A stretch of 64,000 bases of DNA from an uncultured delta proteobacterium (GTDB lineage Bacteria > Desulfobacterota > Binatia > UBA9968): NCBI GenBank assembly GCA_963840855.1, contig CAWJBB010000050.1:32001-96000 (forward strand), written 5' to 3'. Positions 24,610 to 63,716 of this stretch are shown here, one piece after another. Position numbers and translations under genes: made by a program. Each line of letters opens with the position of its first letter. Position 1 is the first letter of the stretch. A model generated the notes under the pieces. The model worked only from the letters and a program-made list of their open reading frames with translations, did no database searches and had not been told where the DNA came from.

Positions 24610-24653
24610 CCTGAGATTGAACTGAACGACGCAACGGATAAATCTCACAGGAT
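24610..24653. repeat. 70-bp dyad element: left arm plus centre
   Basis: CCTGAGATTGAACTGAACGACGCAACGGATAAATCTCACAGGAT. Confidence 0.85.
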
Positions 24654-24688
24654 GCAGTCAACGGAGAGCGGTTGGTTCCGCGCCACCT

Positions 24689-25000
24689 TTAACGCTCGGC
24701 CTCCCGTACAACCTCACGTGGGTTTTTGTCTTCTCGCAGGCCGACGAAAGCTGATTGCCGTAGATGCGCGTCCGGTGTCCACTCGGCAAACTCGATCTGC
24801 GCCACTACTTCGGGCTTCACCCATGTGCAGTTTTTCATCTCTTCCTTCGTTAAAGCCCACTGGGTGCGCTTGCGCTCTGGCAGATTCGCAAATGGACAGG
24901 TGGCGATTTCTAGGCCCCTGAGCTTGGCTGCTACCGCACGGCGGGTGTGGGGAACAAAGCCGTTTCGCACCTTGCCCGCATACAACAGTGTGCCGTCCTC
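24689..25000 (-). pseudogene. ATP-dependent ligase C-terminal (OB-fold) fragment, copy 3
   Basis: DGTLLYAGKVRNGF...EVVREAER is near-identical to copies 1 and 2; catalytic domain missing. Confidence 0.9.
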
Positions 25001-25568
25001 CAAGAACACGTAAGCGAGCGTACTAGCAGTTACGGCGGACCGTTTGATTGACAATCAATCGCGCTTTTTCGCCCGCAAACTAGTCGATCATTACCTGTAT
25101 TTTCAAGCACGGCTGAAAGGCAGGCCCGAAGACCTTGATGACATTGCTCGCTTTGCTGACGAATGCCGAGACCTCATAGAGCGGCATCTGCCGAGGTGGC
25201 ATTGCTTGACAGCGTTTTCCAAAAGGGGAATAAGGGAAACTGATAGGAAAAAAGGCAATAAGGGCGGAGGGCGCGAGGCGTCAAAGGCTAGATGAGGGCC
25301 CTCGGAGTTTGGCGTGCCTTCCGGTTCTTAACAAAAAGTTAACTTGATCTACCTCGCTCAATAACACTATCGCTGTAAAGAAGCTTACTCACGCTAAAAG
25401 GAGCAGACTATGCCGACGCACAGTCCCCACTCCGTCCGCGGCGGGAAGTGCCGCGGACCTCCAGCGCAGACAGAACGCAATGGTCCTTTGAGACTTTCTT
25501 CAGTCACCGAAGGGTGCGGTGCGCGTACAACCCCCAACTGCGTTCACGATTAAGAGAACAGAGAGGAG

Positions 25569-26567
25569 ATGCAAATCATGAACATGCACGCGCGTTATGA
25601 GCTATCACCATCTCAACAGAAGTCACATGATTCAGCGCCGCCCCAATGGCAGGAGCGGAAACTGAATTTTGTTGAACCCGAGCGGATCAAGCATGGAGGA
25701 CTGCAGCGATGGGGCACCAGCAGGCAGATAGCAGTGTTCTTCGTCATGATCACAGTCGCTGTTTTACTCGCAGTGAGTTCATCCTCAAGTTTCGGACAAG
25801 AATGCGGGGATAGCAGCGAGTGTGGCACGAATATCAACCCGGCCATCTGCGACCCGCTAACCCACCAATGCATGGCCGTAGAATGCATTGCCGAGTTTAA
25901 TTGCGCGACGCAACCAGCAGTTTGCGAAAACAACATGTGTCGGCAAGTCGAGTGCACGATCTCCAAGCGTGACTGCGGGTCTACTCAAGTGTGCAGGGGC
26001 AATAAGTGCGGGATTGCTTGCCAGATCAATAGCGACTGCACGCGCCAGCTCGGATTCGGAGTCTGTGGAACCGAAGGCATATGCGTTGAAGAACCCGCGG
26101 CGCGAGTGTTCGATCCGATACCTGTATCTTTTGCTAGGCCTGTATTTGGTACAGGGCTGGTAACAGATTTAGCGCAAGCTATAGCATTCGAACGCAAACT
26201 CATAACGCTACCAATCGCTTTCGAAGCGGGAGATATTGCCAAAATTTCCTCATCGGCTAATGGGGCAGGCGCGTTAGTAATTGACAATTTCTTGAGCATT
26301 AACAACACGAGCGGGATGGATTGCAAGGGCAGCAATGCCTGCGAAGGCGTAGGAGGGCGAGATAACAGCTGCTTCGGCGACTTCCTTATTCCTAATCCTG
26401 AAGACGGCGTTGGCTTGGACATTGCCACTGTCCTTACGCCGATCCCGCCCATTGACGTGAGCAAGTTTATTGGCGCTGGATCTCAGTCAGTCCTGTTTGA
26501 ATTGTGCGACTTTGGAGCCATTGCTGGTAACACCGACCTGTGGCTGATTATTACACCACATCAATGA
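25569..26567 (+). CDS. Secreted cysteine-rich repeat protein
   Basis: Hydrophobic signal/TM segment, four CxxxxxC...C...C units, then a beta-rich domain. True start may be downstream. Confidence 0.7.
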   Translation: MQIMNMHARYELSPSQQKSHDSAPPQWQERKLNFVEPERIKHGGLQRWGTSRQIAVFFVMITVAVLLAVSSSSSFGQECGDSSECGTNINPAICDPLTHQCMAVECIAEFNCATQPAVCENNMCRQVECTISKRDCGSTQVCRGNKCGIACQINSDCTRQLGFGVCGTEGICVEEPAARVFDPIPVSFARPVFGTGLVTDLAQAIAFERKLITLPIAFEAGDIAKISSSANGAGALVIDNFLSINNTSGMDCKGSNACEGVGGRDNSCFGDFLIPNPEDGVGLDIATVLTPIPPIDVSKFIGAGSQSVLFELCDFGAIAGNTDLWLIITPHQ

Positions 26568-26849
26568 ATCTTTGAACTTGAAGATAGAGACGACCCGAGC
26601 AGAATCAGATCAAGGCCTGGGATCTGGTGAAGGCCATGTGAATGAGTAGGCTTACGCCTAACTACAACCAGTCTATGGTTCTGCTCGGTGTCCCTCTTCA
26701 ACCTTTTCCGCAGCATAGTGCGATGCAATCCTGACAAAGCAAGGCCGATGTTGACGATCTGCTCCCAGCAAGGGTCGGGACTGGATTGGGGTGATTATTT
26801 GCCGGATTACATCCTCGACAGTGTTTAATTGTCTTTTTGGCGAGGTCAC

Positions 26850-27638
26850 ATGAGATTTACGGTTAGTATTTGGATGATAGTACTTGCACTCGTTGGTACG
26901 CCTCTCGTATGGCCTGGCGAAGGTCAGGCCGGAGTGGAGGAGGAACTCGGCGAATTGCGCAAAGAGCTGGCTGAAATCAAGAAGGAGCTAGCGGAGATCA
27001 AAAAACTAGTTTCAGGCGCTTTCAAGCCTCAAATTGCACCGAAGGCAACTGCCATGGTCAGCATCTCGGGAAAACCAAGCCTCGGACGCCAAGAAGCTCC
27101 AGTGACGCTGGTTGAGTTTTCGGACTACCAATGTCCGTTCTGCAGACATCATTTCTTGACCGTATTTCCGATTCTCAAGAAGGAGTACATAGAAACGGGC
27201 AAGCTTCGCTATGTATTCCGCGACTTTCCCCTCGACAGTATCCATCCCCAGGCGCAGAAAGCCCATGAAGCAGCCCGCTGCGCAGGGGAGCAGAGCAAGT
27301 ACTGGGATATGCATGATACGCTTTTTGAGAACTCGAAAGATCTCTCTCTATTAGCGCTGAAAGGGTACGCTACAAAGATCGGGCTGAACGGGGATCAATT
27401 TAATGCTTGCTTGGAAAGCAGCAAATACACCGCCGAAATAAATAGGGAACAGGCAGAAGGTGTTCAGTCAGGAGTGACCGGGACCCCAGCATTTTTCATT
27501 GGTCCAAGCGGGTCGGGAGAGAATATCACCGGTACTATGGTCAGCGGAGCGCAGCCATTAGCCAGGTTTAAGCAGATCATCGACGATTTATTAAAAGTCG
27601 CCAGTCAAACTGGCACAGCTAAGCCAACGAAGGAGTAA
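26850..27638 (+). CDS. DsbA/thioredoxin-fold disulfide oxidoreductase
   Basis: EFSDYQCPFC, RDFPL, GVTGTP, GAQP; N-terminal coiled coil. Confidence 0.93.
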   Translation: MRFTVSIWMIVLALVGTPLVWPGEGQAGVEEELGELRKELAEIKKELAEIKKLVSGAFKPQIAPKATAMVSISGKPSLGRQEAPVTLVEFSDYQCPFCRHHFLTVFPILKKEYIETGKLRYVFRDFPLDSIHPQAQKAHEAARCAGEQSKYWDMHDTLFENSKDLSLLALKGYATKIGLNGDQFNACLESSKYTAEINREQAEGVQSGVTGTPAFFIGPSGSGENITGTMVSGAQPLARFKQIIDDLLKVASQTGTAKPTKE

Positions 27639-29827: not shown

Positions 29828-29859
29828 CACCGCGATGACCCAAAGGAGGATTGCCATAT

Positions 29860-33122: not shown

Positions 33123-33681
33123 ATAGTTTCGTCGATGAGAAAGGCTCCAAAAAAGACCACGAGGTTGTGGCGCAGAGGATGCCCCGATCGCTGTTTCGAC
33201 TGGGACTCGTCCTATAAAAGAGCCCTGAATAAAAAAGAGCGATTGGAGTCATATTTTTAACGCTTCTACTGGTGCTGTGTTTCGCGCTTCGAAAAGATTT
33301 CAAGAGAAAAAAGCCGTTAAACGCCATCGTTATTTTCGCCTTGGCTATGCTGGGACTATGGTGCTTCGTCGCATTTGAGAAAGCGTACCTTAGTCTCCAT
33401 AACCTGTTGATGTAGCCAAATTGTTCTCCGTTATTGCCAACCATTAACTGAATTGGTCATCTGTAAATCGCCGTGGGATCGACCGACGCCTCAGAGAAAT
33501 CTCACAGGATTAGTTCGAGGGAGAAATCAGTTCAATTGGATGGTTAACGACCAAGCTCAGCGACCGCCGCCCGAAACGCCCGGTCGGCTGCAACAGTCGC
33601 TGACAAATTACCGAACCGTCCGACTGCAAAGCGGGCGGCGGTTCGCTGCAGCGTTCTTGTTATGTGACGAAACGGCCACAA

Positions 33682-34357: not shown

Positions 34358-34429
34358 CAGGATTGAACTGATCGACGCAACGGACAAATCTCACAGGATT
34401 TGTTAGATGGAGAATTCAGTTCAATCCTG
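34358..34429. repeat. 70-bp dyad element, complete copy
   Basis: CAGGATTGAACTGA-N12-ACAAATC-TCACAG-GATTTGT-N12-TCAGTTCAATCCTG. Confidence 0.9.
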
Positions 34430-34453: not shown

Positions 34454-35419
34454 TCACCTGATCAGCTTATTCGCTCGCGCGAGCACGTCCGGCGGAATTG
34501 TCAGACCAATCTGCTTTGCGGTCTTGAGATTGATGACAAACTCGAACTTGGTTGGCTGCTCGACAGGGAGGTCGGCAGGCTTGGCTCCCTTGAGGATTCT
34601 ATCTACGAAATATGCGACGCGCCGGTGCAGATCGAGAAAGTCCCCGCTATAACTCATCAGCCCGCCATCGACAACGAATGGTGAATTGGGGTAGATAGCC
34701 GGTAGCCGCGTTTTAGCCGCCTGACTAGCGACCCGCATCCGTTGACCGTTCATCCAACCGCCCCCCGATATGATGAGCGCCTCGGTTTCGTTGGCCGCGG
34801 CTCGAAAGGACTTCTCCAGATCATCCGGCCCTTTCATTTCGATTGTTTTAAGCTGCAGGCGGAGCGCGCGCGCTGGGGCCTCGATCTCCCGGACGTTGGC
34901 CTTACCACTTAGACCAGTCCAGAGATGGCCAACCCGGGAGACTTTCGGAAAGGCTTCCTTCAAGAGCTCCAGCCGTTTTCCCGCGAGCCCCGCGCCGAGG
35001 CCAGTGTAACCCGTGATATTGCCCCCAGGCCGAGCAAGACTTTCTATGAGTCCCATCTCCACGGGATCGTCAGCTACGTTCATCACGATGGGGATCGTGC
35101 TGGTTACCTGTTTCGCCGCTCGAATTGCCGGAATCCCGGTGGTCACGATGCAGTCGACCTTCAGCCGGACCAATTCAGCGGCAAGGCCGGGAAACTGACT
35201 CGTGTCGCCGCCTTTCGTAAAGCGCCATTCGATGAGAATGTTTTGACCTTCGACATATCCGAGCGCGCGAAGACTCTCTCGGAATGGCTCAACGGCGGGC
35301 GATGCTGCCGGCGCGAGGTAACCAACGCGGTAAAGTTTCTTCGCCTGCTGCGCCTCTGCGGGAAGGCACAGCGCAAAGAACATGGCGCAAAGCGCAAGAC
35401 GGATAACGTTCTTTCTCAT
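34454..35419 (-). CDS. ABC transporter substrate-binding protein (ABC_sub_bind-type)
   Basis: [50 protein letters not shown]. Confidence 0.93.
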   Translation of the reverse strand: MRKNVIRLALCAMFFALCLPAEAQQAKKLYRVGYLAPAASPAVEPFRESLRALGYVEGQNILIEWRFTKGGDTSQFPGLAAELVRLKVDCIVTTGIPAIRAAKQVTSTIPIVMNVADDPVEMGLIESLARPGGNITGYTGLGAGLAGKRLELLKEAFPKVSRVGHLWTGLSGKANVREIEAPARALRLQLKTIEMKGPDDLEKSFRAAANETEALIISGGGWMNGQRMRVASQAAKTRLPAIYPNSPFVVDGGLMSYSGDFLDLHRRVAYFVDRILKGAKPADLPVEQPTKFEFVINLKTAKQIGLTIPPDVLARANKLIR

Positions 35420-35471
35420 GAGTTTTCTTCGGAGTTTTTGCTGCTCACTGCTTTCTGCTCACTGCTCACTG

Positions 35472-36470
35472 TCATTTAATGACCTTGTCCGCCCGATACA
35501 GCATCGACTGCGGAATCGTCAGGCCAATCTGCTTCGCGGTCTTTAGGTTGATCATCAACTCGAACTTCGTCGGCTGCTGCACCGGCAGGTCGGCGGGCCT
35601 GGCCCCCTTCAGGATTTTGTCCACGTACCAGGCGACGCGCCGGTAGCTGTCGCCGAGGTCCGCCCCGTAGTACATGAGCCCGCCGGCATCTACAGCTTCT
35701 CTTATGGCGTACACCGACGCTAACCGGCTCTTTAACGCAAAGCCCGCGATCCGTTTTTGGCTATTATTGATTAGCGGGCCGCCGGCGGGCACGTAGAGTC
35801 CATCCGGGCGCTCCTTGTTTAGCGCAGCGAATACCCGCTCGAAACCGTCCGCATCTCGTACCTCCCAAGGCTGAATAGCTAACCGCAGCGCACGCGCTGC
35901 GACTGGGAGAACCTCTTTCACCTCGACTACAACTTGCGAATTGGCCGGATCGTAGAGAACCGCGACACGGGCAACTTTGGGAACCGCTTCTTTGAGCAGC
36001 TCCAGCCGTTTCCCGCCTAGTTCTCTGGAAAGGTTTGTAAGGCCGGTGACGTTGCCGCCGGGACGGGCGAGGCTTTCAATTAAGCCTAGCTTGACAGGAT
36101 CGGACCCCTGACCCACCATGACGATGGGAATTGTCTTGGTCGCATTCTTGGCCGCCTGGATCACCGAGCGCCCTCCTGCTGCCACGATGATATCAACCTT
36201 GAGACGCACTAGCTCGGCTGCAAACTCAGGGAGCCGATCGACCTTCCCCTCCGTATATCGGTACTCGCTGGCGATGTTCTGTCCTTCTATGTAGCCAAGC
36301 TCGCGCAGAGCCAGCCGAATTGCCTCGGAACGGGTGGACTCAGTAGCTGGGTCGAGCTGCGATAGATACCCTATCCGGGTGACTTTCTTCGACTGCTGCG
36401 CCTCGGCTATCACTCCAAGAGCCAGTAGGATCACTACGGACAGGATTGCCAAGACACCAGATTTTTTCAT
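35472..36470 (-). CDS. ABC transporter substrate-binding protein paralog
   Basis: Same motifs as the adjacent gene. Confidence 0.93.
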   Translation of the reverse strand: MKKSGVLAILSVVILLALGVIAEAQQSKKVTRIGYLSQLDPATESTRSEAIRLALRELGYIEGQNIASEYRYTEGKVDRLPEFAAELVRLKVDIIVAAGGRSVIQAAKNATKTIPIVMVGQGSDPVKLGLIESLARPGGNVTGLTNLSRELGGKRLELLKEAVPKVARVAVLYDPANSQVVVEVKEVLPVAARALRLAIQPWEVRDADGFERVFAALNKERPDGLYVPAGGPLINNSQKRIAGFALKSRLASVYAIREAVDAGGLMYYGADLGDSYRRVAWYVDKILKGARPADLPVQQPTKFELMINLKTAKQIGLTIPQSMLYRADKVIK

Positions 36471-36546
36471 TGCAGACGTCATTTGCGTATTACGCGGAAG
36501 GTAGCAGAGAAAAGTGACATTTACGACAGAAGGCGAAAGATATCCG

Positions 36547-36594
36547 TCGAGTGGAAAAACCAGATTTTTAGCCTGAGATTGAACTGAACAACGC
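36547..36594. repeat. Dyad element left arm with conserved leader
   Basis: TCGAGTGGAAAAACCAGATTTTTAGCCTGAGATTGAACTGAACAACGC. Confidence 0.85.
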
Positions 36595-36628
36595 TTCGTT
36601 CCAAACCCGCACGCAGGGCGAACCTGCC

Positions 36629-41200: not shown

Positions 41201-42190
41201 TTACCTTTCCACCTCCCGCACAACCTCACGCGGGTCTTTGTCTTCTCGCAAGCCGACGAAACTAGCGTTCCGTAGATGCGCGTCCGGCGTCCACTCGGCA
41301 AACTCGATCTGCGCGACCACCTCGGGCCTTACCCATGTGCAGTTTTTCATCTCTTCTTTTGTCAAAGCCCACTGGGTGCGCTTTCGTTCTGGCAGATTCG
41401 CAAATGGACAGCTGGCGATTTTTAGTCCCCCGAGCCTGGCTGCTACCGCACGTCGGGTGTGCGGAACAAAGCCGTTTCGCCCCTTGCCCGCGTACAACAG
41501 TGTGCCGTCTTGATAGTACCCGACGATGATGGAATCTATGGGGTTTCCCGAAACATATCCGCCGATCACTAACTCTTGGCCTCGGTTGATGCGATACTTG
41601 AGCCACGCACCGCTTCGTTTGCCGGATTCATAATACGAGTCCCTCAGCTTGGCGAGGATTCCCTCGAAGCCTAACTGTTTTGCGACGCGCACCAACTCGG
41701 TCGGCGTGGCATCAATCGTTTCTGACAGCTTTATGGGGAAATCTTTGCTACGGACTTTTTCAAATATTTCACCAAGGACCTTCCGCCGCTCTTTAAGCGG
41801 TACGTTCAAGAGGCTCTTGCCCCGGCAGATTAGAACGTCGAAGGCGTAAAAGAGCAGCGCCTGTGCTTTTGAACGATGATGCTGAAGAAGATTGAATGAG
41901 ACCCGACCACTTTCATCGACGGCCACAATTTCGCCATCGAGAAGCGTATCGGCTGGGAGCCGTTCGCAAGCGCGGGCAATATGCGGGAACTGGGCGGTAA
42001 AGAGATTTCCTCGCCGTGACCAAAGCGTTACGCCATCGTTGCGTTTTCCAGCAAGGCACCGGTAGCCGTCGAACTTTACCTCGTAGAGCCAGTCCTTGCC
42101 GGCGGGAAGCTGTCGCAGCGCAAGCGCATACATCGGCTCGATGAAGCGGACGGCGGCTTCCGGCTGGCTGCTACGTTTGACTCTTCGCAT
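41201..42190 (-). CDS. ATP-dependent DNA ligase (LigD ligase domain / LigC-like), copy 2
   Basis: YEVKFDGYR and other motifs; highly similar to 19305-20294. Confidence 0.93.
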   Translation of the reverse strand: MRRVKRSSQPEAAVRFIEPMYALALRQLPAGKDWLYEVKFDGYRCLAGKRNDGVTLWSRRGNLFTAQFPHIARACERLPADTLLDGEIVAVDESGRVSFNLLQHHRSKAQALLFYAFDVLICRGKSLLNVPLKERRKVLGEIFEKVRSKDFPIKLSETIDATPTELVRVAKQLGFEGILAKLRDSYYESGKRSGAWLKYRINRGQELVIGGYVSGNPIDSIIVGYYQDGTLLYAGKGRNGFVPHTRRAVAARLGGLKIASCPFANLPERKRTQWALTKEEMKNCTWVRPEVVAQIEFAEWTPDAHLRNASFVGLREDKDPREVVREVER

Positions 42191-42304
42191 TCATGCGCCG
42201 ACAGTCGGGCGCGCCTGGTAACGAATTACCGACCCATTGCGGCCCGCCTGGTAAACGGTGATTCAATCCGCGAATTTGGCTGACGGGATCGATTTTAGCT
42301 CGTC

Positions 42305-43156
42305 CTAGTTATTATTGCCCGCGTCCGTGCCACCTGTGTAAGGAACGGCGACTCCGCTCGTCAGATTGTCCCGAAATTTTCCGCTTTGGACGGTGAACTC
42401 AATCCCCGACGCCATGTTTGTAATGCGATTGTTAACGACCAACACATCAGACCCCGCAACGATAATACCCCCGGTGCGGGGCCTGGGAGGCGATATAGTA
42501 TTGCTGAGGCGATTATTTTCTACGACGGCGTTATCGGCATTAACTGCAATCGCAAATGCGCCTCCAGTTCCTTGTGCGTTGGTGTCAGTCACGTCATTGT
42601 TGAGAGCGCGGACACCAGAACCGGAGAGAAATATGCCCGTGGACGAAGAACCTGGCAGGGACACGTTGCCTGGTCCCGTGCTTACGATCATGTTGTTGCG
42701 AATGATGCTGTGCCGGTTGCTAACACGGATACCTACCGATGTATTGAGGTCAACGCGGACATTTTCTATGACACACACAGAGCCGAAGCTGATGTTAATG
42801 GCAGTAAAAAATCCCCGCACCGTTCCGTTCTTGACCGTGATGTTATTGCGTAAAAACGCGAAAATCCCTTGAGCCTGTGTTCCTATATTTTCCGATGTCA
42901 GTTCGGTCAATCCTCCAAGAGTAAACCCGTTTAAGTCTATCACGACGTTGTCCGCCGCGATATTGATGGCATTGACAGTGGTGATCGGCGTGCTCAGGTC
43001 ACGTTGGAGACAGTAAGTGCCCGGTATGGTGATAGTCACGGGGAGAAAGTCAATTTCGGCACAGTTTTCAGTCTGTGCTGAGGCAGTCGTCGCGCCAACT
43101 GCTACAAGCAAGGAACCACACAGAAAAGCCGCAGCTAATCGTCCTAAACTCTTCAT
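42305..43156 (-). CDS. Secreted right-handed beta-helix protein, copy 2
   Basis: First 32 aa identical to copy 1; diverged core; conserved C-terminus. Confidence 0.85.
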   Translation of the reverse strand: MKSLGRLAAAFLCGSLLVAVGATTASAQTENCAEIDFLPVTITIPGTYCLQRDLSTPITTVNAINIAADNVVIDLNGFTLGGLTELTSENIGTQAQGIFAFLRNNITVKNGTVRGFFTAINISFGSVCVIENVRVDLNTSVGIRVSNRHSIIRNNMIVSTGPGNVSLPGSSSTGIFLSGSGVRALNNDVTDTNAQGTGGAFAIAVNADNAVVENNRLSNTISPPRPRTGGIIVAGSDVLVVNNRITNMASGIEFTVQSGKFRDNLTSGVAVPYTGGTDAGNNN

Positions 43157-43273
43157 AGCGAACCTCCTTTAGACCAGAATGGTGAGGAGACTAACTATCG
43201 TCGTCGCGGCTGTCAATGAGAAAAGACTTCCGATGGGACGGGTGGCGTATGACAAGCGAGCAGCAATCCAGTT

Positions 43274-43438
43274 TCACTCGCAGCGGCGGTCGTACATTGC
43301 GTAATGCTGGCAGAATCGCAGGTACTCAACCCGGCTGGAGAATTGGGACTGCTCGTAGACCAAGCGCGGGAAGGGGCCGCAACCGACGAAAATAGCGGCG
43401 CAAAGAGCTACGGCGAGAACCATCGATGTAATATTCAT
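43274..43438 (-). CDS. Small lipoprotein absent from the ORF track
   Basis: MNITSMVLAVALCAAIFVGCGPFPRLVYEQ...RRCE; lipobox FVGC; AAAGGA RBS. Confidence 0.55.
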   Translation of the reverse strand: MNITSMVLAVALCAAIFVGCGPFPRLVYEQSQFSSRVEYLRFCQHYAMYDRRCE

Positions 43439-43521
43439 GGTATTTTCCTTTCATCAAGCGGAGTGAATCAAATGGAAAACAAGATACAAGCCTAGGACCG
43501 AATAGACGATGGCCACGAAGG

Positions 43522-44706: not shown

Positions 44707-44909
44707 CGCGGAAGTCCCCCGATAACACGTAAAGCTAATGCTGTGCCGTGCCGATTTGACGTGTATTGGCGAACCGTGTTCCCAAAACCCCGCTTTTGCC
44801 GCGTGTTTGACGGAGGTTATTTCGGGCGCGAATTCACAAACGGGTGGTTTGGCCCTGTCAGAACTGACCGCAAAGCGCCGCCTCTGCTCGCAAATTGCGT
44901 CGAATTTTT

Positions 44910-45671: not shown

Positions 45672-45721
45672 AGACTGCTATGTGGTGGAGCAAGCGTGGG
45701 ATGAATGCTGATTGTTTTGTA

Positions 45722-45742
45722 GGAGAAATCAGTTCAATCCTG
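45722..45742. repeat. Dyad element right arm
   Basis: GGAGAAATCAGTTCAATCCTG; the following bases resemble those after the 62531 copy. Confidence 0.85.
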
Positions 45743-45885
45743 CGATCGCGGCTAAGCGTTTCACTGTCTAATTTCGCGGTGCTTTGCTGTGCGCCCTATC
45801 CCGCCCGGTTGACTTTTTAGCGTGTCAAGAATAGAAGGCCCTTCTGCTCGTCGAGTGCCTTAAATGCACAAAAGGAGGGTTTGAT

Positions 45886-47301
45886 ATGTTTAACCGTTCT
45901 ACCATCATGGCGTCGTTTTTCTCCGTCATTGTGGCTGGGCTCATTTTCTCGCTCTCTCTAGCAGGGGTTGCTGCGGCGCAGAGCAACACCCGCCTGGGGA
46001 TAGGCGCACTTCAGAACAACACCACGGGCGAGCAGAACACCGCCATCGGGAACAATGCGCTCTTTAGCAACACCACGGGCAACGGCAACACCGCCAGCGG
46101 ATTCGATGCGCTCTTTGCCAACACCACGGGCAATTTCAACAGCGCCAGCGGTTTCCAGGCGCTCTTTAGCAACAACGGCGACGGCAACACCGCCAGCGGA
46201 TTCCGTGCACTCTTTGCCAACATCACGGGCATCAACAACACCGCCAGTGGGGCTAATGCGCTCTTTAGCAACACCACGGGCAGCCACAACACCGCCAGCG
46301 GACTCAATGCGCTCTTTAGCAACACCACGGGCAGCGACAACACCGCCAGTGGAGTCAATGCGCTCTTTAGCAACATCACGGGCATCAACAACACCGCCAG
46401 CGGACACAGGGCGCTCTTTAGCAACACCACGGGTGAAGCCAACACCGCCACCGGACTCGATGCGCTATTTAGCAACACCACGGGCAGCCTCAACACCGCC
46501 CTCGGTCTCCAAGCGCTCTTTAGCAACACCACGGGTGAAGCCAACACCGCCACCGGACTCGCTGCGCTCACTAACAACACCACGGGCAGCAGCAACACCG
46601 CTACCGGATCCAGCGCGCTCATTCTCAACACCACGGGTGAAGCCAACACAGCCAGCGGAAACAATGCACTCACTAACAACCGCACAGGCGGCAACAACAC
46701 AGCCATCGGAGTTGGTGTGCTCGATAACAACATCACGGGCAGCAACAACACCGCCATCGGGTTTGCAGCCAATGTGTCTGCTGGGGATCTGGTAAACGCT
46801 ACGGCTATCGGCAGTAGTGCCATCGTCAATGCCAGCAATAAGATCCGCCTGGGAAACGGTGACGTCACGGTGATCGAAGGGCAGGTGGCGTTTACTTTCC
46901 CTTCGGACAAGACCCAGAAGGAAAACTTCCAGCCGGTCGATGGAGAGGAAGTGCTGGGAAAGATTCGCGGCTTTGAGCTGTCGAGCTGGAACTTCATTGG
47001 CCACGATCTTAAGAAGTTTCGCCACTATGGTCCCATGGCGCAGGACTTCTATGCAGCCTTCGGCCACGACGGATTGGGACAGATCGGCTCGGAGAAGACG
47101 ATCAACTCGGGCGATCTGGCGGGGATTCTAATGATCGCCGTGCAGGCGCTGGAGAAGCGCACGGCGGAGCTAAAACACAAGGAGGCGCAGATTGCTGCGC
47201 TGGAATCGCGGTTGGAGGCGCTAGAGTTGCGAAATAATCACTCTATCCAGATAACAGCCGGGAAAAACCTCGGCGACAAGATGGTCGACGTGATGCCGTA
47301 A
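45886..47301 (+). CDS. Secreted 17-aa-repeat protein with peptidase S74 chaperone, copy 2
   Basis: About 15 repeats; C-terminal domain nearly identical to copy 1. Confidence 0.88.
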   Translation: MFNRSTIMASFFSVIVAGLIFSLSLAGVAAAQSNTRLGIGALQNNTTGEQNTAIGNNALFSNTTGNGNTASGFDALFANTTGNFNSASGFQALFSNNGDGNTASGFRALFANITGINNTASGANALFSNTTGSHNTASGLNALFSNTTGSDNTASGVNALFSNITGINNTASGHRALFSNTTGEANTATGLDALFSNTTGSLNTALGLQALFSNTTGEANTATGLAALTNNTTGSSNTATGSSALILNTTGEANTASGNNALTNNRTGGNNTAIGVGVLDNNITGSNNTAIGFAANVSAGDLVNATAIGSSAIVNASNKIRLGNGDVTVIEGQVAFTFPSDKTQKENFQPVDGEEVLGKIRGFELSSWNFIGHDLKKFRHYGPMAQDFYAAFGHDGLGQIGSEKTINSGDLAGILMIAVQALEKRTAELKHKEAQIAALESRLEALELRNNHSIQITAGKNLGDKMVDVMP

Positions 47302-47375
47302 GTGAATAATAAGAATTAAAAAAACAGTCTGATCTCCCCTGGAGGTTTTTGAACTTTACGGACAGAATGTATTCC

Positions 47376-47423
47376 TCGAGTGGAAAAACCAGATTTTTAG
47401 CCTGAGATTGAACTGAACGACGC
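47376..47423. repeat. Dyad element left arm with conserved leader
   Basis: TCGAGTGGAAAAACCAGATTTTTAGCCTGAGATTGAACTGAACGACGC. Confidence 0.85.
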
Positions 47424-47584
47424 GACGTTTCAATCATATCACTGTTAGATCATCCGTACCGTGCTATAGTGTGTGGCCCAATCTCCATAGTCTTTATAAA
47501 ACTCAAATAATCCCACCGCTTGGCCATACGATCCCACTCCCTGGCCCCTTTATTTCCTCGCCATCTTGATAACGCTTTTCGAGA

Positions 47585-48256
47585 TCAAAACTCTATACTG
47601 ACCGATGTAACAAAGGCGGGTTTCTTCTTGTCCGGATTAAAGACATGCCCGGTGACCTCTACTTTTTTGTAATTCACCCCGACGAGAAATCCTCGCTGGA
47701 CATTGAAATCGCTCTGATACACCTTGGTTTTTTGCAGCACCAGTCCAGCGCGCAGCCAGTCGAACGGAGACACTGTCAACTCCGACCAACCGTAGAGAAA
47801 GGAGTCAGAACGTTTGTCGGTGGTGATAACGAACTCACCCTCGCCGTAGAAGTAGAATCTCCACCAACTAAGTGAGCCACGGAGGCCGGGTGCGACGCCT
47901 GTTGTCTTACCAAAGACACCACCAAGCATCGGCGTGACGTTCAGCGAGAGCTTATTACTAGCACTGAAGTTGTATCCGACCCACAGGGATCCAGTTTCCA
48001 GAGCTTCGTAGTTGTAGCGTGCTTCGAGATGCAACCACCCGCGGTCGGCCTTAAATGTGGGCTGCGCATAGTTATGGCTATCGGGCACGATGTAGGTGTA
48101 GACCGATGCGGCGAAGGACCAATCGGTCGCTGGCTGTCCCGGTGGAATCGTAATGGATCCGGCAATGGCTTCCCGGGCGCTACGGGGCTCGGCCAGTAGG
48201 GCGAAGCAGATGATCGCAAGGCAAGAGACCCAAAAAAGTGCAACGTTGCACGTCAC
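47585..48256 (-). CDS. Hypothetical outer-membrane beta-barrel-like protein
   Basis: Signal peptide, LHLEARYNYE, alternating beta strands, terminal Phe. Confidence 0.7.
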   Translation of the reverse strand: MTCNVALFWVSCLAIICFALLAEPRSAREAIAGSITIPPGQPATDWSFAASVYTYIVPDSHNYAQPTFKADRGWLHLEARYNYEALETGSLWVGYNFSASNKLSLNVTPMLGGVFGKTTGVAPGLRGSLSWWRFYFYGEGEFVITTDKRSDSFLYGWSELTVSPFDWLRAGLVLQKTKVYQSDFNVQRGFLVGVNYKKVEVTGHVFNPDKKKPAFVTSVSIEF

Positions 48257-48368: not shown

Positions 48369-48540
48369 CTACAACAAGGATTGATGACACCGCAGCCTTC
48401 TTCATTAGCGCACCTCGTTTCGAGCGTTTTGTATCACGCGGAGAGAGATAAAGGAAAGTGTGATTTACACGGAGGAAGGCGACAGGGATTCGTCGAGTGG
48501 AAAAACCAGATTTTTAGCCTGAGATTGAACTGAACGACGC
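48369..48540 (-). pseudogene. SBP 5' relic (MKKAAVSSILVV) with full leader and dyad left arm
   Basis: Matches the upstream regions of the SBP genes starting at 62348 and 63531. Confidence 0.8.
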
Positions 48541-48721
48541 ATCGATCTAAATCGCCCATGGACTAGCACATTACGCGGAAGGTAGCAGTAACAATACTGA
48601 AGTCGCTGCCTGTTTTCCAGCAAGCGACGATAGCCCGAATCGTATTATCTCCTCATTGAGAGCGGAGGCCAGCGGAGACGGGGCGTGAGCCGGCACCTAT
48701 TCCGGATGCACTCTTTAAAAT

Positions 48722-50115: not shown

Positions 50116-50181
50116 TTGACATCCCACCGGTCCGGCGATATTGCTCGGGCCAGAAAAAAGGAGGTTTAAACCTCCTATACA
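50116..50181 (+). mobile_element. IS91/ISCR-like oriIS end, orphan copy 1
   Basis: AAAAAAGGAGGTTTAAACCTCCTATAC; homologous to the 51977 and 55134 copies. Confidence 0.55.
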
Positions 50182-51976: not shown

Positions 51977-52031
51977 CGGTCCGGCGATATTGCTCAGGCC
52001 AGAAAAAAAGGTGGTTTAAAATTCCTATACA
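51977..52031 (+). mobile_element. IS91/ISCR-like oriIS end, orphan copy 2
   Basis: AAAAAAAGGTGGTTTAAAATTCCTATAC. Confidence 0.65.
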
Positions 52032-55133: not shown

Positions 55134-55200
55134 TGTATAGGAAATTTAACCCACCTTTTTTCTGCCCGGAGCTATATCGCTGAACTGGCGAGCCTGTCAG
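55134..55200 (-). mobile_element. IS91/ISCR-like oriIS end, orphan copy 3 (inverted)
   Basis: Reverse complement AAAAAAGGTGGGTTAAATTTCCTATAC. Confidence 0.65.
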
Positions 55201-59338: not shown

Positions 59339-60401
59339 GATGGGCAGGTATTAGTTCGGGCCAATAGGAAATCAAGGCGCGCGGGATAGGGGCGGCGATC
59401 ACGAATTAGACTCAAAGAGCAATCTCGCCATGAATTGCGATCTGCAGCAATCTGCCGGCAGCTTGAGCCCAATCTAACTTAAGCGGCTTGATTTCGTTCT
59501 TGTAGGCTTCGCTTGATAGATGGCGCTTCAGTTCTTTCTCGTCGGTTACAGGCATCGTTCATTTTCCTTTCTATGTCCTGGTGACGTTGTGCCGGCGAGG
59601 GCGCCGGAGTTAGGGGCGGCGGTGGCAGACTGAAAAGATTTGGATGACTATCGACCTGTCGCACTTAGAAAGTCGAGAACGTTAGAGCAATGACATTTAT
59701 TCTTGTGTTCAACTGTTTAGTATCGCGGCGCGGCTCTGCTGAATGATTTTTTCACTTTGTCTCAGCAGCTTTTTAATTTTTTTCAAAAGTTGATGACTGG
59801 TTGTATTTAAACGTTTCGATTGAGCCAACGTTTATTCTATATCGTGCATTTGTCCGACTCCTAGAGCAAGAGATTTCCTGCAATTTTCTTATGTTGTGAC
59901 CCCATGCCGGTTGACGCTCGCGCATAATATCCCGGCGCGCCTGAAACCAGGTCCCTTTGGGCCAGTCCCAGTTGCAGTGGGGTAGCTCGTCCTCGTCGTA
60001 GTATCCGCTATTTACCGGGCTCTGCGTGAAAATGTTCTGCCAAGTATCAGCAGCCATCGGGCTTTCCTCCTTTATAAGGTTTACGTTTGGAGAAATCCAA
60101 ATATATCATCAATCTAGGCCGCAAGTTCGATGCCGTTGCTTACGGCCCGATAAAGGAACGTATCCCGATGGTGTTTTTATCTCTGTTCAGAATTGGACCG
60201 TTTTGAAATATAATTTGAGCAGCAACCCTATACGCGCGGATGCGCCGGAGTTAGGGGGGCGGTTGGAGATTAGTAGCGTGGGCTTCGTTTTTGATAAAAC
60301 GTCAAGCGTGCATTTAAGGAGCCAACGAGGCTGTTGTATATCGAAGAACCAAGCGGAAACAAAACTTTTTGCGAGCGTTCGGTTGTACCCTGGACAAGCA
60401 T

Positions 60402-60485
60402 CTACGCCTGCTGCGCTTCGGCTGCAACTCCAAGAGCAAGCAAGACCACTACGAAAAGGATTGATGGCACCGCAGCCTTCTTCAT
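60402..60485 (-). pseudogene. SBP signal-peptide relic (MKKAAVPSILFVVVLLALGVAAEAQQA*)
   Basis: Matches the N-termini of SBP genes 62348 and 63531; conserved leader upstream. Confidence 0.85.
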
Positions 60486-60595
60486 TGCGCACCTCGTTTC
60501 GAGCGTTTTGTATCACGCGGATACAGATAAAGGAAAGTGTGATTTACGGCGGAAGGCGATAGGGATTGGTCAAATAAGAAGGCAAGGGCCACCCT

Positions 60596-60664
60596 GAGAA
60601 TTGAACTGTACGCAACAGTCTCGTCTTGTAGGATGAAGTCGTAGGAGAATTCAGTTCAATCCTG
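60596..60664. repeat. Dyad element, both arms with divergent centre
   Basis: GAGAATTGAACTGTACGCAAC ... GGAGAATTCAGTTCAATCCTG. Confidence 0.85.
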
Positions 60665-60688
60665 GCAGGGCTGCTTGGTTTTCTGCCA

Positions 60689-60816
60689 TCACTTGATCAG
60701 CCTACTCGCCCGGGCAAGCACCTCCGGCGGTATCAGACCGATCTGTTTTGCGGTTTTGAGATTTATCACCAGCTCGAACTTTGTCGGCTGCTCCACAGGC
60801 AGGTCGCCTGGCTTGC
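60689..60816 (-). pseudogene. SBP 3' relic
   Basis: [40 protein letters not shown]. Confidence 0.85.
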
Positions 60817-60876
60817 AGTGGAGATGTGATGAGTTAGCATGAACAGAGCAATTCATCATTAATGCGGAGGTGATCT

Positions 60877-61188
60877 ATGCGATTTCTAGTCAAGGTGAAC
60901 ATTCCTGTCGAAGCCGGGAACAGGGCTGCGAAGGCGGGAAAGCTCGGCACAACCATCCAATCTATACTGGCGGATTTGAAGCCCGAGGCCGTGTATTTCA
61001 CGGACGACAATGGTCAACGGACGGCGTTTCTCTTCCTCGAAATGCAGGACGCTTCGCTGATCCCCGCAATTGCGGAGCCGTGGTTCCTCGCGTTCAATGC
61101 GAGCATTGAGATTCACCCGGTGATGGTACCTGACGACCTTGCTAAGGCTGGAGGCGCGATCGAGCAAGCAGTCAAGAAATACGGCTGA
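60877..61188 (+). CDS. DUF3303-like small ferredoxin-fold protein
   Basis: MRFLVKV..P.EAGN, KPEAVYF...GQRT, AEPWF, HPVM; GGAGG RBS. Confidence 0.7.
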   Translation: MRFLVKVNIPVEAGNRAAKAGKLGTTIQSILADLKPEAVYFTDDNGQRTAFLFLEMQDASLIPAIAEPWFLAFNASIEIHPVMVPDDLAKAGGAIEQAVKKYG

Positions 61189-61278
61189 TTGATCGGCGCC
61201 ATCTAACCGCCGCGGGAGCCGATAATTGAGTATGCTATTTTACTTAGTCACGACTCAACGGCATAGCGTTAGCCTTGA

Positions 61279-61337
61279 GATTGAACAACGGACAAATCTC
61301 ACAGGATTTGTTAGACGGCGAATTCAGTTCAATCCTG
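61279..61337. repeat. Dyad element with ~10-bp deletion in the left arm
   Basis: GATTGAAC|AACGGACAAATCTCACAGGATTTGTTAGACGGCGAATTCAGTTCAATCCTG. Confidence 0.88.
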
Positions 61338-61361
61338 GTATCGCCGCTTCGCTTTCTTTGC

Positions 61362-62348
61362 TCACTTGATCACTCTATCCGCTCTCGCCAGCACGTTTGG
61401 TGGAATCGTCAGGCCGATCTGCTTGGCGGCTTTGAGATTGATGATGAAGTCGAACTTCTTCGGCTGCTCCACCGGGAGATCGGCAGGCTTGGCGCCTTTG
61501 AGAATCTTGTCAACATAGGTCGCGGCGCGGCGGAACAAGTCGGTAATGCTCACGCTATAGGTCATAAGCCCGCCGTCCTCTACATTTTCTGGCCAAGAAT
61601 ATATTGCGGGAAGCCGGCTCTTTACCGCGAATTCTGCAGTCTGCGTTCGCTGAGAAAGGAAGACGGGGCTTGTCAACACCAGGACGGCGTCGGCACGCCC
61701 CTTGCTCGAGGCTTGAAATGCACTCTCAATATCCTTCGGAGCTAATACTTCCAGGTACTGAAGCTGCACCTTCAACGCCTCTGCGGCGAGTTCCGTCTCT
61801 TTTAACATTTGTGCCGTGCCCGCTCTGGTCGAATTGCCGATGACGGCCACCCGCGTGAGCTTCGGAACGATCTCTTTCAGAAGCTCTAGTTGCTTTCCGC
61901 TTATCTCCGGGGCGAGAGTCGACAATCCAGTAATATTCCCTCCCGGTCGCGCAAGGCTGGCGACGAACCCCGAGCCGACAGGGTCATCATCAAGCGCCAT
62001 GACAATAGGAATCGTGGAAGTTGCTTCCTTGGCGGGACGGGTAACTGTCGGACCGGCCGAGACGATGATGTCCACCCTGAGACGCACCAGTTCGGCTGCA
62101 AGCTCACTTAGGCGATCTACTTTTCCCTCCGCATATCGCCACTCAATGGCGATGTTTTTCCCCTCCACGTATCCCAACTCGCGTAGCCCCTGCTTGAATG
62201 CCTCGATGCGGGCCGAGATAGTCGAAGGGGAGACAGCGCTTAGGAACCCTAGGCGTGGGACTTTCTTCGCCTGCTGCGCCTCGGCTGTAACTCCAACAGC
62301 AAGCAGTATCACTGCAACCAGGATTGATGGCACCGCAGCTTTCTTCAT
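61362..62348 (-). CDS. ABC transporter substrate-binding protein paralog
   Basis: EAQQAKKVPRLGFL, SLARPGGNITG, GAKPADLPVEQP. Confidence 0.93.
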   Translation of the reverse strand: MKKAAVPSILVAVILLAVGVTAEAQQAKKVPRLGFLSAVSPSTISARIEAFKQGLRELGYVEGKNIAIEWRYAEGKVDRLSELAAELVRLRVDIIVSAGPTVTRPAKEATSTIPIVMALDDDPVGSGFVASLARPGGNITGLSTLAPEISGKQLELLKEIVPKLTRVAVIGNSTRAGTAQMLKETELAAEALKVQLQYLEVLAPKDIESAFQASSKGRADAVLVLTSPVFLSQRTQTAEFAVKSRLPAIYSWPENVEDGGLMTYSVSITDLFRRAATYVDKILKGAKPADLPVEQPKKFDFIINLKAAKQIGLTIPPNVLARADRVIK

Positions 62349-62457
62349 TGCGCACCTTGTTCTTGCGGGTTTTTATCACGGATACGGTAGCTGAGAAAAG
62401 TGTTATTTACGGCAGAAGGAGAACCAGATTCATCGAGGGGGAAAAGGCTAATTTCGA

Positions 62458-62533
62458 CGCAGGATTGAACTGTACGACGCAACGGGCAAATCTCAGAGGA
62501 TTTGTTAGATGGAGAAATCAGTTCAATCCTGCG
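62458..62533. repeat. 70-bp dyad element, complete copy
   Basis: CGCAGGATTGAACTG ... CAAATC-TCAGAG-GATTTG ... CAGTTCAATCCTGCG. Confidence 0.9.
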
Positions 62534-62557
62534 ATTCGCTACTAAGTGTTTCTGCCA

Positions 62558-63531
62558 TCACTTGATCACTCTATCCGCTCTCACCAACACATTCGGCGGA
62601 ATCGTCAGGCCGATCTGTTTCGCGGTCTTCAGATTGATGATGAACTCAAACTTCGTCGGCTGCTCCACCGGCAGGTCGGCAGGCTTGGTGCCCTTGAGGA
62701 TCTTGTCTACATAATACGCCGCACGCCTGAAACTTTCAGCTTCGTCGGCTGAATAGGACATCAGGCAACCAGCCTCCACGTAATCACTTCTTTCACACAT
62801 GGATGGTATTCGGTTCTTTATGGCAAGGTCAGCGATTAACTTTCGATGACTAATGGTCACACCCTGGGTATCGACAATGAGCGCGCTCACACGCCCGCTG
62901 GTCGCCACTTGGAATGCTCCCTCGAAATCAGGGTTTGGACCGCGAACCTCTAGCGAGACAATCTGCACCTTTAGTGCACGCGCCGGAGACTCGTAATCTG
63001 TCGTCAATCCACCCAGGACTCCAATGCGCGACACTCCCGGAATCGCCTCGTTAAGCAATTCCAGCCGTTACCGCTTAAGTCCCTGGTGAGTCTCGTGAGC
63101 CCTGTGATATTTCCGCCTGGATGCGCCAAGCTATCGATTAGCCCAAGCGCGACTGGATCGCCGGTAATCATCATCACGATGGGAATCGTCTTGGTCGCCT
63201 GTTTGGCTGCACGGATACCTGAATTAGCTGCGGAGACAAGCACATCGACCTTGAGCTGTACGAGCTCAGCCGCGAAGCCTCGAAGACGTTCCTCCACCCC
63301 CTCAGCATAGCGATACTCGATAAGGATGTTTTTCCCCTCAATATGACCGAGATCCCTTAGCCCTTGGCGGAATGCATTCTCGAACAGATCGGGACTAGTA
63401 GGCGTCGGCTTGACCCTGTTCGACAAAAATCCGATCCGCGGGCCTTTGCCCGGCTGCTGCGCTTCGGCTGTAACTCCAAGAGCAAGCAACACCACTGCAA
63501 TCAGGATTGATGGCACCGCAGCCCTCTTCAT
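62558..63531 (-). CDS. ABC SBP paralog, frameshifted at ~63070 (one A missing from the Lys codon of LSGKRLE)
   Basis: ORFs 63004-63552 and 62558-63058 join into one SBP. Confidence 0.88.
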
Positions 63532-63644
63532 TGCGCACCTCGTTTCGAGCATTATGTATCACGCCGATAGAGATAAAGGAAAGTGTGATTTACGGGCGGA
63601 AGACGACAGGTATTAGTTGAGTGAGAAAACCCGATTTTAAGCCT

Positions 63645-63716
63645 GAGATTGAACTGATCGACGCAACGGGCAAATTTCACAGGTTTTTGTTCGATGGAGA
63701 AATCAGTTCAATTCTG
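63645..63716. repeat. 70-bp dyad element, complete copy
   Basis: GAGATTGAACTGATCGACGCAACGGGCAAATTTCACAGGTTTTTGTTCGATGGAGAAATCAGTTCAATTCTG. Confidence 0.9.

Follow-up and report, generated by a model that had tools for sequence, protein, structure and literature searches.

Two unlike half-sites around an Xer-like recombinase gene: candidate recombination junctions in orphan binding-protein gene arrays of an uncultured Binatia bacterium

Introduction

What is the short dyad that recurs, always in the same orientation, between the orphan substrate-binding protein (SBP) genes of an uncultured delta proteobacterium of the Binatia, and does it allow the genes around it to move? The question is raised by a 64,000-nt stretch of DNA (GenBank assembly GCA_963840855.1, contig CAWJBB010000050.1, positions 32,001 to 96,000; the window in what follows), in which a sequence-only reading had noted a symmetric element of about 70 bp and proposed that it delimits mobile cassettes in the manner of the attC sites of integrons. 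We report that the dyad consists of two unlike halves, that the same halves flank a gene for an Xer-like tyrosine recombinase in relatives and metagenomes, and that blocks of high similarity within the genome end at dyads much more often than expected by chance. The reading that we favour, with modest confidence, is that these are modules flanked by Xer-type sites and served by a dedicated recombinase, closest to the dif/pdif module islands of Acinetobacter, with movement of the modules inferred from sequence comparison.

All genomes compared here are metagenome bins, some taxon labels of which may be wrong. The bin of the window's own genome (G000) comprises 7.10 Mb in 93 contigs, with a completeness of 94% and a contamination of 8%. 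Below, C with a number denotes one of its contigs, other G numbers denote relatives and L numbers denote fetched loci; the left and right halves of the dyad are called LH and RH.

Results

Eleven co-oriented copies in the window

Allowing up to three mismatches, the 14-nt arm of the dyad matched the window 18 times, whereas shuffled sequences averaged 5.1 matches and peaked at 14, and none of 100 reached 18. An nhmmer profile of the ~72-base dyad, built from 29 full copies and used on both window and genome, detected 11 window copies, every one of them on the + strand:

24612-24667, +: LH and centre of a dyad (profile positions 2-57, E=4e-11), after the gene for a Peptidase_S74 repeat protein (23317-24522)
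33479-33537, +: dyad with a degenerate left arm and an intact centre and RH (positions 12-70, E=3e-12; repeat family D18)
34358-34429, +: full dyad and best copy, with 0 mismatches in either arm (nhmmer E=4e-22; inverted repeat I6)
36574-36607, +: LH only, with the conserved SBP leader on its left (positions 2-35; repeat families D10 and D16)
45710-45742, +: RH only, upstream of non-SBP cargo (positions 41-73; 0 mismatches in the arm)
47403-47437, +: LH only, with an SBP-type leader motif on its left (nhmmer positions 2-36)
48520-48549, +: LH only, after a 223-aa open reading frame (ORF, 47585-48256) without a Pfam family (positions 2-31)
60598-60664, +: full dyad with a variant centre, followed by a truncated SBP 3' fragment from 60689 (E=8e-13; families D6 and D7)
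61276-61338, +: dyad with an internal deletion in LH (nhmmer E=1e-12; alignment row window:61273-61340)
62460-62531, +: full dyad (nhmmer E=9e-21)
63644-63716, +: full dyad, the next SBP gene leaving the window (stop at 63741; nhmmer E=1e-18)

The profile recovered all ten places named by the sequence-only reading, at offsets of 1-12 nt, and added the copy at 33479; the uniform orientation noted there was found for 11/11 copies. A fixed short spacing between the right arm and SBP stop codons was also borne out, except that the arm ends 23-26 nt before the stops at 34454, 60689, 61362, 62558 and 63741, and not 25-27 nt as first given.

Two unlike halves, conserved in sequence

In the orientation of the window, LH consists of site1 (GATTGAACTGA), an 8-nt stretch (nCGACGCn) and site2, a weak inverted copy of the arm, and RH of site3 (GATTgnnTnGA, a weak arm), a second 8-nt stretch (nGGAGAAn) and site4 (TCAGTTCAATC). 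The variable centre of the dyad, 5-10 nt long, lies between site2 and site3, and the best copy (34358-34429) follows this order with a 6-nt centre. Each half measures ~30 nt and pairs a strong with a weak inverted arm in an 11-8-11 layout; the halves mirror each other in orientation, and the 8-nt stretch of one is unlike that of the other. An alignment of 92 distinct full copies from the own genome, relatives and public assemblies, from which one 110-nt outlier was excluded, has 32 columns conserved at ≥90%, both 8-nt stretches included, and the weak inner arms are poorly conserved.

The element had first been drawn as symmetric throughout. This is true of its outer arms but not of the '12-bp spacers', which are not complementary to each other yet are each conserved between copies, so that the dyad is asymmetric within symmetric arms. 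Nor do the half sites appear to be broken recombination junctions, as had been supposed; they are two separate half-elements, LH and RH. In our view the best explanation, which forms one with the module model and has the same modest confidence, is that the dyad would be a pair of inversely oriented, non-identical recombinase sites of ~30 bp each.

The same symmetry could instead belong to a regulatory or transcript-end element that was co-duplicated with the SBP genes and is bound by a host factor, with no role in recombination. RH would then be a 3' hairpin, a terminator or a REP/BIME-like stabiliser of mRNA, and LH an operator at the next promoter region. The placement of the halves suits such a role, RH lying 23-26 nt past SBP stops and LH ~90-125 nt before the next start, with a conserved leader, and the whole element folds better than shuffled sequences (mean z -3.2); contigs from one RNA library cover dyad-bearing bins, a weak argument given possible DNA carry-over. 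By eye, we saw nothing convincing in the leader by way of promoter motifs. However, under our own stem model neither stem shows compensatory change or covariation. In the two drawn stems 81.3% of cells pair, against 80.6% after partner shuffling (39/500 shuffles as high); the outer arms pair at 9.97 of 11 positions, against 10.02 when partners are swapped between copies, and the inner boxes at 5.51 against 5.33 (p=0.08). RNAalifold found no consensus structure in the 92 copies, Rfam gave 0 matches at gathering scores for the whole window and 0 at E<=1 for 60400-63800, and no T-run follows the hairpin; the folding energy of the inner hairpin is modestly under that of shuffles (mean z -1.1; 48% of 88 copies below -1).

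Since the stretches that would be unpaired are among the best-conserved columns and pairing is hardly affected by shuffles and swaps, the constraint appears to be on sequence, as for protein-binding sites, and not on pairing. On the Rfam, RNAalifold, pairing and T-run results we rejected the RNA and terminator reading. A regulatory role in the wider sense we consider unlikely: the dyad also punctuates unrelated cargo, and the same ends flank a recombinase gene in fixed geometry at dozens of loci (see below). The original preference for a recombination site over an RNA structure or terminator thus gains from the absence of covariation and of Rfam matches, and the conservation pattern supports a dyad that behaves as a protein-recognised recombination site, with protein binding itself a prediction.

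An Xer-like recombinase gene between the two halves

The window contains no recombinase, as the sequence-only reading had stated, and yet a gene for an Xer-like tyrosine recombinase lies between the dyad halves in relatives and metagenomes. It was found by tblastn of the genome's tyrosine recombinases against the fetched loci:

L023, between LH 4365-4397 and RH 5274-5307: 274-aa Xer-like gene in an SBP array (tblastn)

Near-identical genes occupy the same place in G041 (L106), G002 (L111) and G003 (L112). The G002 locus has two tandem recombinase copies with an O-methyltransferase-like gene between them, an intact form of 307 aa lying at L111:1339-2262, and in G017 the gene is followed by LH, with no RH seen. 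The own genome has only a pseudogene with several stops (C93:37648-38406, L014), at which RH is intact and LH is lost. The geometry is fixed: in the sense of the gene, the reversed RH ends ~65 nt ahead of the start codon, and 8-10 nt separate the stop codon from the 8-nt stretch and arm of the reversed LH that follow it. Among 72 metagenome loci retrieved with the protein as query, LH follows the gene in 40 of the 50 testable cases, RH lies within 140 nt upstream in 25/42 and both are present in 15/28; of the loci lacking RH, most fall into a subfamily that is conserved upstream in another way (13 of the 16 upstream regions inspected).

The 16 elements with both ends are 1011-1020 bp long (median 1015). 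Where their outer flanks can be recognised, an SBP tail lies on one side and an SBP leader on the other, just as at short dyads, and the 1-kb form therefore sits exactly where a 72-nt dyad would. The best explanation is that a family of small elements has LH at one end and RH at the other, its long form carrying one Xer-like gene between them and its short form, the dyad, only 5-10 nt.

The enzyme scores 201.5 and 201.4 bits on the NCBIfam models for XerC and XerD (cut-offs 335 and 330) and 65 bits on the integron-integrase model TIGR02249 (cut-off 265), and its closest solved relative is XerD (1a0p, E=2e-38). Judged by these scores, it is an Xer-family paralogue and not XerC or XerD proper. 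Its sequence contains ARLRE, RKGG, HVLRH, NHKS and ARYL, which we take to be the catalytic motifs of tyrosine recombinases. Database proteins matching it at E<=1e-40 number 288, one identical NCBI record being named Candidatus Binatia, and many are on contigs of 1-3 kb, as would be expected from the assembly of a repeated element.

A ~1-kb segment that has inverted repeats at its ends, a recombinase gene inside and a conserved 5' region resembles the hin arrangement, and one could imagine an invertible switch (hin- or fim-like) in which the enzyme flips the segment between the inverted 14-nt arms and toggles the flanking cargo. We find this hardly credible: none of 29 long elements is clearly inverted relative to the SBP tail and leader (one weak match is probably spurious), the short dyads are co-oriented on every contig, and the 44 nt between the arms of the short form would be too short to invert.

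Two other sets of tyrosine recombinase genes, near some islands, were considered as dyad enzymes and rejected, not being tied to the sites. An IS91-family pair (Y2_Tnp and a 280-aa tyrosine recombinase) lies directly beside a dyad at C35:32582-34503, and a 75-83% identical recombinase occurs in another bin (L025:4180-6224); the arm contains GTTC, a target motif of IS91. A second, distant recombinase family occurs 4-9 kb past three island ends (C50:111945-113045, C41:219817-220506 and L059:189-590), with 41% identity between the C50 and C41 proteins and 36% to that of L059, and may represent the integrase of a larger genomic island.

Clustering in the genome and spread among relatives

The own genome carries about 91 copies of the dyad (nhmmer E<=0.05), namely 47 full copies, 29 of RH only and 15 of LH only. 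They sit on 15 contigs, on a single strand of each (18/18 on C50, 12/12 on C85), and the islands that they form cover 220 kb of the 7.10 Mb, or 3.1% of the genome. According to our gene calls, which are home-made and crude and on which the orientation counts rest, the RH-side gene runs on the opposite strand in 63/76 cases, with 30 of these 63 stopping 10-29 nt from RH, and the LH-side gene does so in 47/61.

Among 40 relatives, BLAST (E<=0.001) detected the dyad in 12, a count that includes one weak match in the unpublished genome G009: 11/24 of the same family, 1/5 of a second family and 0/11 of a third. A scan for a 19-nt pattern, with one genome per species, returned 82 loci, ~72 of which have real dyads; the remaining ~10 are chance matches, with no dyad by nhmmer in five and only the ~20-nt pattern in five. 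Most of the loci come from bins titled Candidatus Binatia or 'uncultured delta proteobacterium', and some, mostly on short contigs, from bins labelled Acidobacteriota, Verrucomicrobiia or Chloroflexia. Arrays of dyads with SBP genes are seen under such other-phylum labels at L037 (Chloroflexia), at L023, L041 and L074 (Pyrinomonadaceae) and at L027, L050 and L080 (Verrucomicrobiia); L037 lies on a 1.76-Mb contig, <=9 kb from the contig end, in a genome with only three matches. These arrays could reflect real transfer, mis-binning or chimeric assembly, and because mis-binning and chimeric contig ends are possible we make no claim of transfer between phyla. When a 20-kb piece of the window was compared with five relatives, it matched only through SBP paralogues, at about 65-87% identity, and these five offered no orthologous locus at which gain or loss could be compared.

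Cargo, leader and tail

Cargo usually lies between RH and the following LH. In the window, the genes of family PF04392 (ABC_sub_bind) at the dyads comprise three intact genes and one broken in two, and a further unit carries unrelated cargo:

34454-36482, -: two neighbouring PF04392 genes that no dyad separates (34454-35419, Pfam E=4e-39, and 35472-36482, E=3e-40)
61362-62348, -: PF04392 binding-protein gene (Pfam E=1.6e-52)
62558-63552, -: PF04392 gene broken into ORFs 62558-63058 and 63004-63552 (Pfam profile positions 173-292 and 18-112)
45886-47301, +: non-SBP cargo between RH 45710 and LH 47403, a 471-aa protein that has a Peptidase_S74 domain (PF13884 E=4.4e-9) and tandem repeats of 51 bp (repeat families D1 and D2)

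Taking all islands together, the cargo consists mostly of orphan PF04392 SBP genes; besides these there are, among others, genes for methyltransferases and for a TENA-family protein, a GH65-HAD fusion, the Peptidase_S74 repeat protein and a protein like diacylglycerol kinase. About 136 ORFs of the own genome match a profile of the window SBPs, and many of them are on dyad-free contigs (16 on C6, 12 on C34). Two modules bracketed by dyads (C41:191309-194604 and C85:93744-100063) pair a GAF histidine kinase with a stand-alone receiver of 127 aa; the kinases have 971 aa with 4 GAF matches and 1979 aa with 10, and the 3' parts are 95% identical.

In 28 of 30 copies the SBP leader motif is joined to an LH arm, and in 38 of 39 the SBP tail motif is joined to an RH arm; even the exceptions have a nearby or truncated arm. 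Since leader and tail are nearly always joined to the arms, the SBP module includes its sites; among the 30 leader and 39 tail copies we found no empty site, that is, no motif without an arm. A second conserved type of left flank (...CCTAACGAAnGGCGGC...GGCCAGACCATC...) precedes LH in eight copies, for instance at C69:68000-68128, L107 and L110, and may be another repeat family or a cassette end.

The dyad and the integrons of the same genome

In attC sites, the core consensus is RYYYAAC for the R'' box and GTTRRRY for the R' box. The dyad arms, ATTGAAC and GTTCAAT, each miss this by one base, at the fourth position, and are nearly invariant there in 63 copies. A divergent attC served by the genome's own IntI, with the islands as CALIN (attC clusters without a nearby integrase), would explain the AAC...GTT core, the succession of outer stem, unpaired stretch, inner stem and variable centre, and the co-oriented arrays with a site at gene 3' ends. 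A true IntI does exist in G000, at C1:45951-47012 (441-442 bits on TIGR02249, cut-off 265), as does a C-terminal IntI fragment at C21:55430-55906 (216 bits), next to which a crude scan placed four attC-like sites (47.4-54.8 kb). However, genome-wide nhmmer and a repeat search around the partial intI of C21 revealed no dyad on C1 or C21, the attC-like sites of C21 are ordinary ones of another sequence, and the lack of covariation and the 65-bit score of the dyad-linked enzyme, which is not an integron integrase, also argue against an attC.

Side by side with these results, we note that the IntI gene of C1 adjoins a run of three further tyrosine recombinase genes, and that C21:47466-55906, with the IntI fragment, the four attC-like palindromes and many short low-scoring ORFs alongside, is probably the remnant of a conventional integron.

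AttC-like sites do meet the dyad now and then. Our scan for them, which used a rule of our own (YTAAC ... GTTAR plus a strong fold) and not IntegronFinder, gave 42 candidates genome-wide, three of them in dyad islands where 1.8 were expected, and hence no enrichment. A YTAAC core lies <=20 nt from the RH end in 40/271 cases overall and in 12/107 in the own genome; in eleven cases read by eye the gap was 7-9 nt, and several of these cores belong to good attC-like palindromes, including one in the window that begins 5 nt past the end of the RH-arm profile match (33537):

33542-33665, no strand assigned: attC-like imperfect palindrome of 124 nt (GGTTAAC ... GTTATGT; pattern and fold, -54.7 kcal/mol)

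With no dyads on the IntI contigs and no enrichment of attC-like sites in the islands, the dyad system appears separate from the integron, the two sometimes meeting. A reading of the dyad as a variant of attC was accordingly dropped, its enzyme and the location of IntI and attC-like sites away from dyads both speaking against it, and we regard a divergent attC as very improbable.

Boundaries of similarity and evidence on movement

In 19 intragenomic alignments (>=90% identity, >=500 bp), a dyad is no more than 40 nt away from 21 of the 76 endpoints, where chance would give 2.2 (p=3e-15). This speaks for the sequence-only reading, with an enrichment that is inflated because alignments of paralogous SBP units cross a conserved dyad and stop where the flanks differ. 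A block of 2352 bp, 99.96% identical between its copies, begins at the first base of an LH arm, and another of 3152 bp (99.3%) begins at a dyad with 3 mismatches in the 30 nt of its LH. Over 1953 pairs of full dyads, identity of the left flank shows a correlation of about 0 with that of the dyad interior, and the right flank is weakly correlated with it (0.12-0.22). In pairs with a shared left flank and unrelated interiors, divergence sets in within site1 or the LH 8-nt stretch, and in one pair with 98% identical right flanks it does so within site4. Contigs of public soil runs each covered at most 0.27 of the sampled words, and at 90% likeness matches piled up on repeats.

Discussion

How might such sites work? 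We propose that the recombinase would bind the arms and that strand exchange would take place between like sites of different dyads (LH x LH, RH x RH), so that modules of the form [RH-cargo-LH] could leave as circles, enter other dyads, or be lost or duplicated. Between co-oriented dyads, recombination of like sites would give a circle of cargo plus one dyad, insertable at any other dyad, and as the two site types have different conserved 8-nt stretches, exchange by two crossovers might also be possible. The outcome would be integron-like and the islands a chromosomal counterpart of the dif/pdif module islands of Acinetobacter. Protein binding, the positions of the crossovers and the mobility of the modules are what we infer here. 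With a pseudogene as the only recombinase copy, the arrays of the own genome are probably frozen and in decay, unless some other enzyme serves them in trans. A bolder and more tentative version would be natural cassette exchange, in which the heterospecific LH and RH sites and a recombinase carried as the smallest module swap, insert and excise [RH-cargo-LH] units without an integron platform, building orphan SBP arrays and sharing them between soil bacteria.

Several observations weigh against modules of this kind. The inner arms of the short dyad (site2 and site3) are not recognisable, by eye, in the long form, which weakens the picture of 11-8-11 core sites, and the conserved 8-nt stretches may be binding determinants and not crossover regions. 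Across the 41 incomplete bins the co-occurrence of dyad and recombinase is weak: close copies are found in G002, G003, G017 and G033 and the pseudogene in G000, against dyad matches in 13/41 genomes (G000 included). Many dyad-bearing relatives are without a close copy, such as G018 with its 11 dyad matches, and two genomes without dyad matches have one, G017 with LH after the gene and G033 with no sites seen. In the alignments of the own genome no moved cargo module is bounded exactly by sites on both sides; the recent duplicated blocks mostly have a dyad at their start and finish inside or past a gene. In one copy, the 99% identical block with the diacylglycerol kinase comes to within 9 nt of a dyad at one end; in the second copy, the other end lies 37 nt beyond an LH match, and the remaining two ends are at no dyad. 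Some of the 'duplicate' blocks may be allelic contigs of co-binned strains. No circle or other excision product was observed; the soil-run contigs gave only ambiguous joints (paralogues, other organisms), and we base no conclusion on them as to excision, circles or transcription. The proposal that units behave as cassettes is supported in that varied cargo is bracketed in co-oriented arrays; the movement of whole cassettes stays a prediction.

The main rival, which we judge doubtful while taking it seriously, is a selfish miniature element: the 1015-bp unit would be akin to an insertion sequence (IS), with its tyrosine recombinase as the mover, and the dyads its non-autonomous deletion derivatives (MITE- or REPIN-like), inserted in one orientation at gene junctions or beside attC cores, with SBP arrays arising by duplication of gene plus dyad and cargo not mobilised. 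In keeping with this, the long and short forms have only the outer arms and the adjacent 7-8 nt in common, the long form is of uniform length (1011-1020 bp) and its protein is often found on contigs of about element size, a second dyad is rarely at the end of duplicated blocks, and the proximity of the RH arm to YTAAC cores (40/271), with the 7-9 nt gap in the eleven cases read, suggests targeted insertion. On the other hand, a selfish element is difficult to reconcile with the missing empty sites and the near-constant joining of SBP leader and tail to the arms, with the confinement of copies to ~3% of the genome instead of dispersal, and with the lack of a visible target-site duplication at the ends of long elements; moreover, the tips that would meet in a circle would seem the least suited as a recombinase core. 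The operator or terminator, attC and inversion-switch readings are less likely than this one, and modules flanked by Xer-type sites remain the interpretation that we prefer.

Other features of the region

A collinear segmental duplication links window positions 19324-24636 and 41220-47427 (78-98% identity). It holds an ATP-dependent DNA ligase gene (19305-20294 and 41201-42190, with a third, partial copy at 24688-24987), an ORF of 282/283 aa without a Pfam family and the Peptidase_S74 protein, the 51-bp repeats of which correspond to 17 aa; copies of the ligase block are also present on C46 and C10. At the island edge, 16467-19148 on the - strand encodes an 893-aa protein with DUF4062, an nSTAND1 NTPase domain and an FGE-sulfatase domain, which looks like a defence or signalling STAND protein. 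A 599-aa protein without a Pfam family has three copies (C35:26175-27974, C35:43518-45317 and C69:69445-71244), two of which abut the LH end of a dyad array, and may be an unrecognised transposase or other mobile gene. Finally, a 55-nt inverted repeat (50127-50181 and 55134-55188, 82% complementary and 4952 nt apart), with a third related copy at 52004-52031, possibly delimits a transposon or insertion sequence within the island.

Comparison with known systems

We found no description of the dyad element in the searchable literature, outside of which lie subscription journals and supplementary files; the papers retrieved were of a general kind or on other subjects. We rate the combination of a dedicated embedded recombinase with a two-site junction as apparently new, and modules with Xer sites on either side as known. 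If our interpretation is true, it would add a second, integron-independent route to co-oriented arrays of single-gene modules, one that relies on double-stranded sites of the Xer type and a small recombinase of its own, in an uncultured but widespread lineage from soil, and would say in concrete terms by what mechanism orphan binding-protein genes underwent their puzzling expansion. Modules flanked by Xer sites, discussed mainly for resistance plasmids of Acinetobacter, would then reach the chromosomes of distant bacteria. On a practical matter, a compact recombinase of ~300 aa with two distinct 30-bp sites would be directly testable. The comparisons below draw on the accessible parts of the cited accounts.

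The system has in common with REPINs and RAYTs a short element made of two inverted repeats and a spacer, present in tens of copies with halves as remnants, and an enzyme gene that is flanked by the repeats and is single or decayed beside many short copies (PMC3337134, PMC3116915). It differs in that the dyad enzyme is a tyrosine recombinase of the Xer/phage-integrase type and not an HUH Y1 (RAYT) transposase, and in that the dyads are clustered and co-oriented instead of dispersed. The 11 matches to PF01797 (Y1/RAYT) in the own genome include 0 in dyad islands, examples being C85:56170 (island at 92-127 kb) and C41:317497 (island at 188-210 kb).

As with IS1111-attC elements and group IIC-attC introns, some dyads abut attC-like sites in one orientation, at 7-9 nt as read by eye. 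Those elements rely on a DEDD transposase or are retroelements, whereas a tyrosine recombinase is present here, and 95/107 RH ends of the own genome have no attC-like core beside them.

An attC site acts as a folded strand, in which pairing preserves the R and L boxes, the central spacer is unpaired and the terminal structure varies (PMC4889954). Cassette arrays and CALIN resemble the dyad arrays in having co-oriented, mostly single-gene units that are each followed by an imperfect palindromic site, a site built from outer paired box, unpaired stretch, inner box and variable centre, and a tyrosine recombinase from whose gene the arrays may be distant (PMC4889954). Unlike them, the dyad system has an enzyme other than an integron integrase and no attI or fixed platform, its SBP units each have their own leader, and true attC-like sites of different sequence exist in the same genome. 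Conservation of the dyad in sequence and not in structure is a further difference, which suggests double-stranded sites.

The closest relatives are the dif/pdif modules of Acinetobacter, in which a 28-bp site consists of two inverted 11-bp arms and a 6-bp central region and C/D and D/C sites delimit the modules of multi-module islands (PMC12907356). Both systems have short sites with two inverted 11-bp arms around a short centre, modules flanked by inversely oriented sites (here RH with the weak arm before the strong and LH with the strong before the weak) and linear islands of varied modules of one to several genes, with up to 18 sites per contig in our case; for both, the evidence of mobility is comparative and not biochemical (PMC12907356). 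A dif/pdif module may recur at >99% identity in different contexts with its boundaries at the sites; in the own genome, blocks with one such boundary are common and none with both was found. The dyad sites have an 8-nt central stretch and 30 nt in all, against 6 nt and 28 bp (PMC12907356), and each junction carries two site types, LH and RH, back to back in place of one shared site. Finally, whereas dif/pdif modules depend on the host's XerC/XerD and carry resistance genes, the arrays described here are chromosomal, belong to uncultured soil bacteria, hold mainly orphan PF04392 genes and have a dedicated Xer-like gene within their smallest module.

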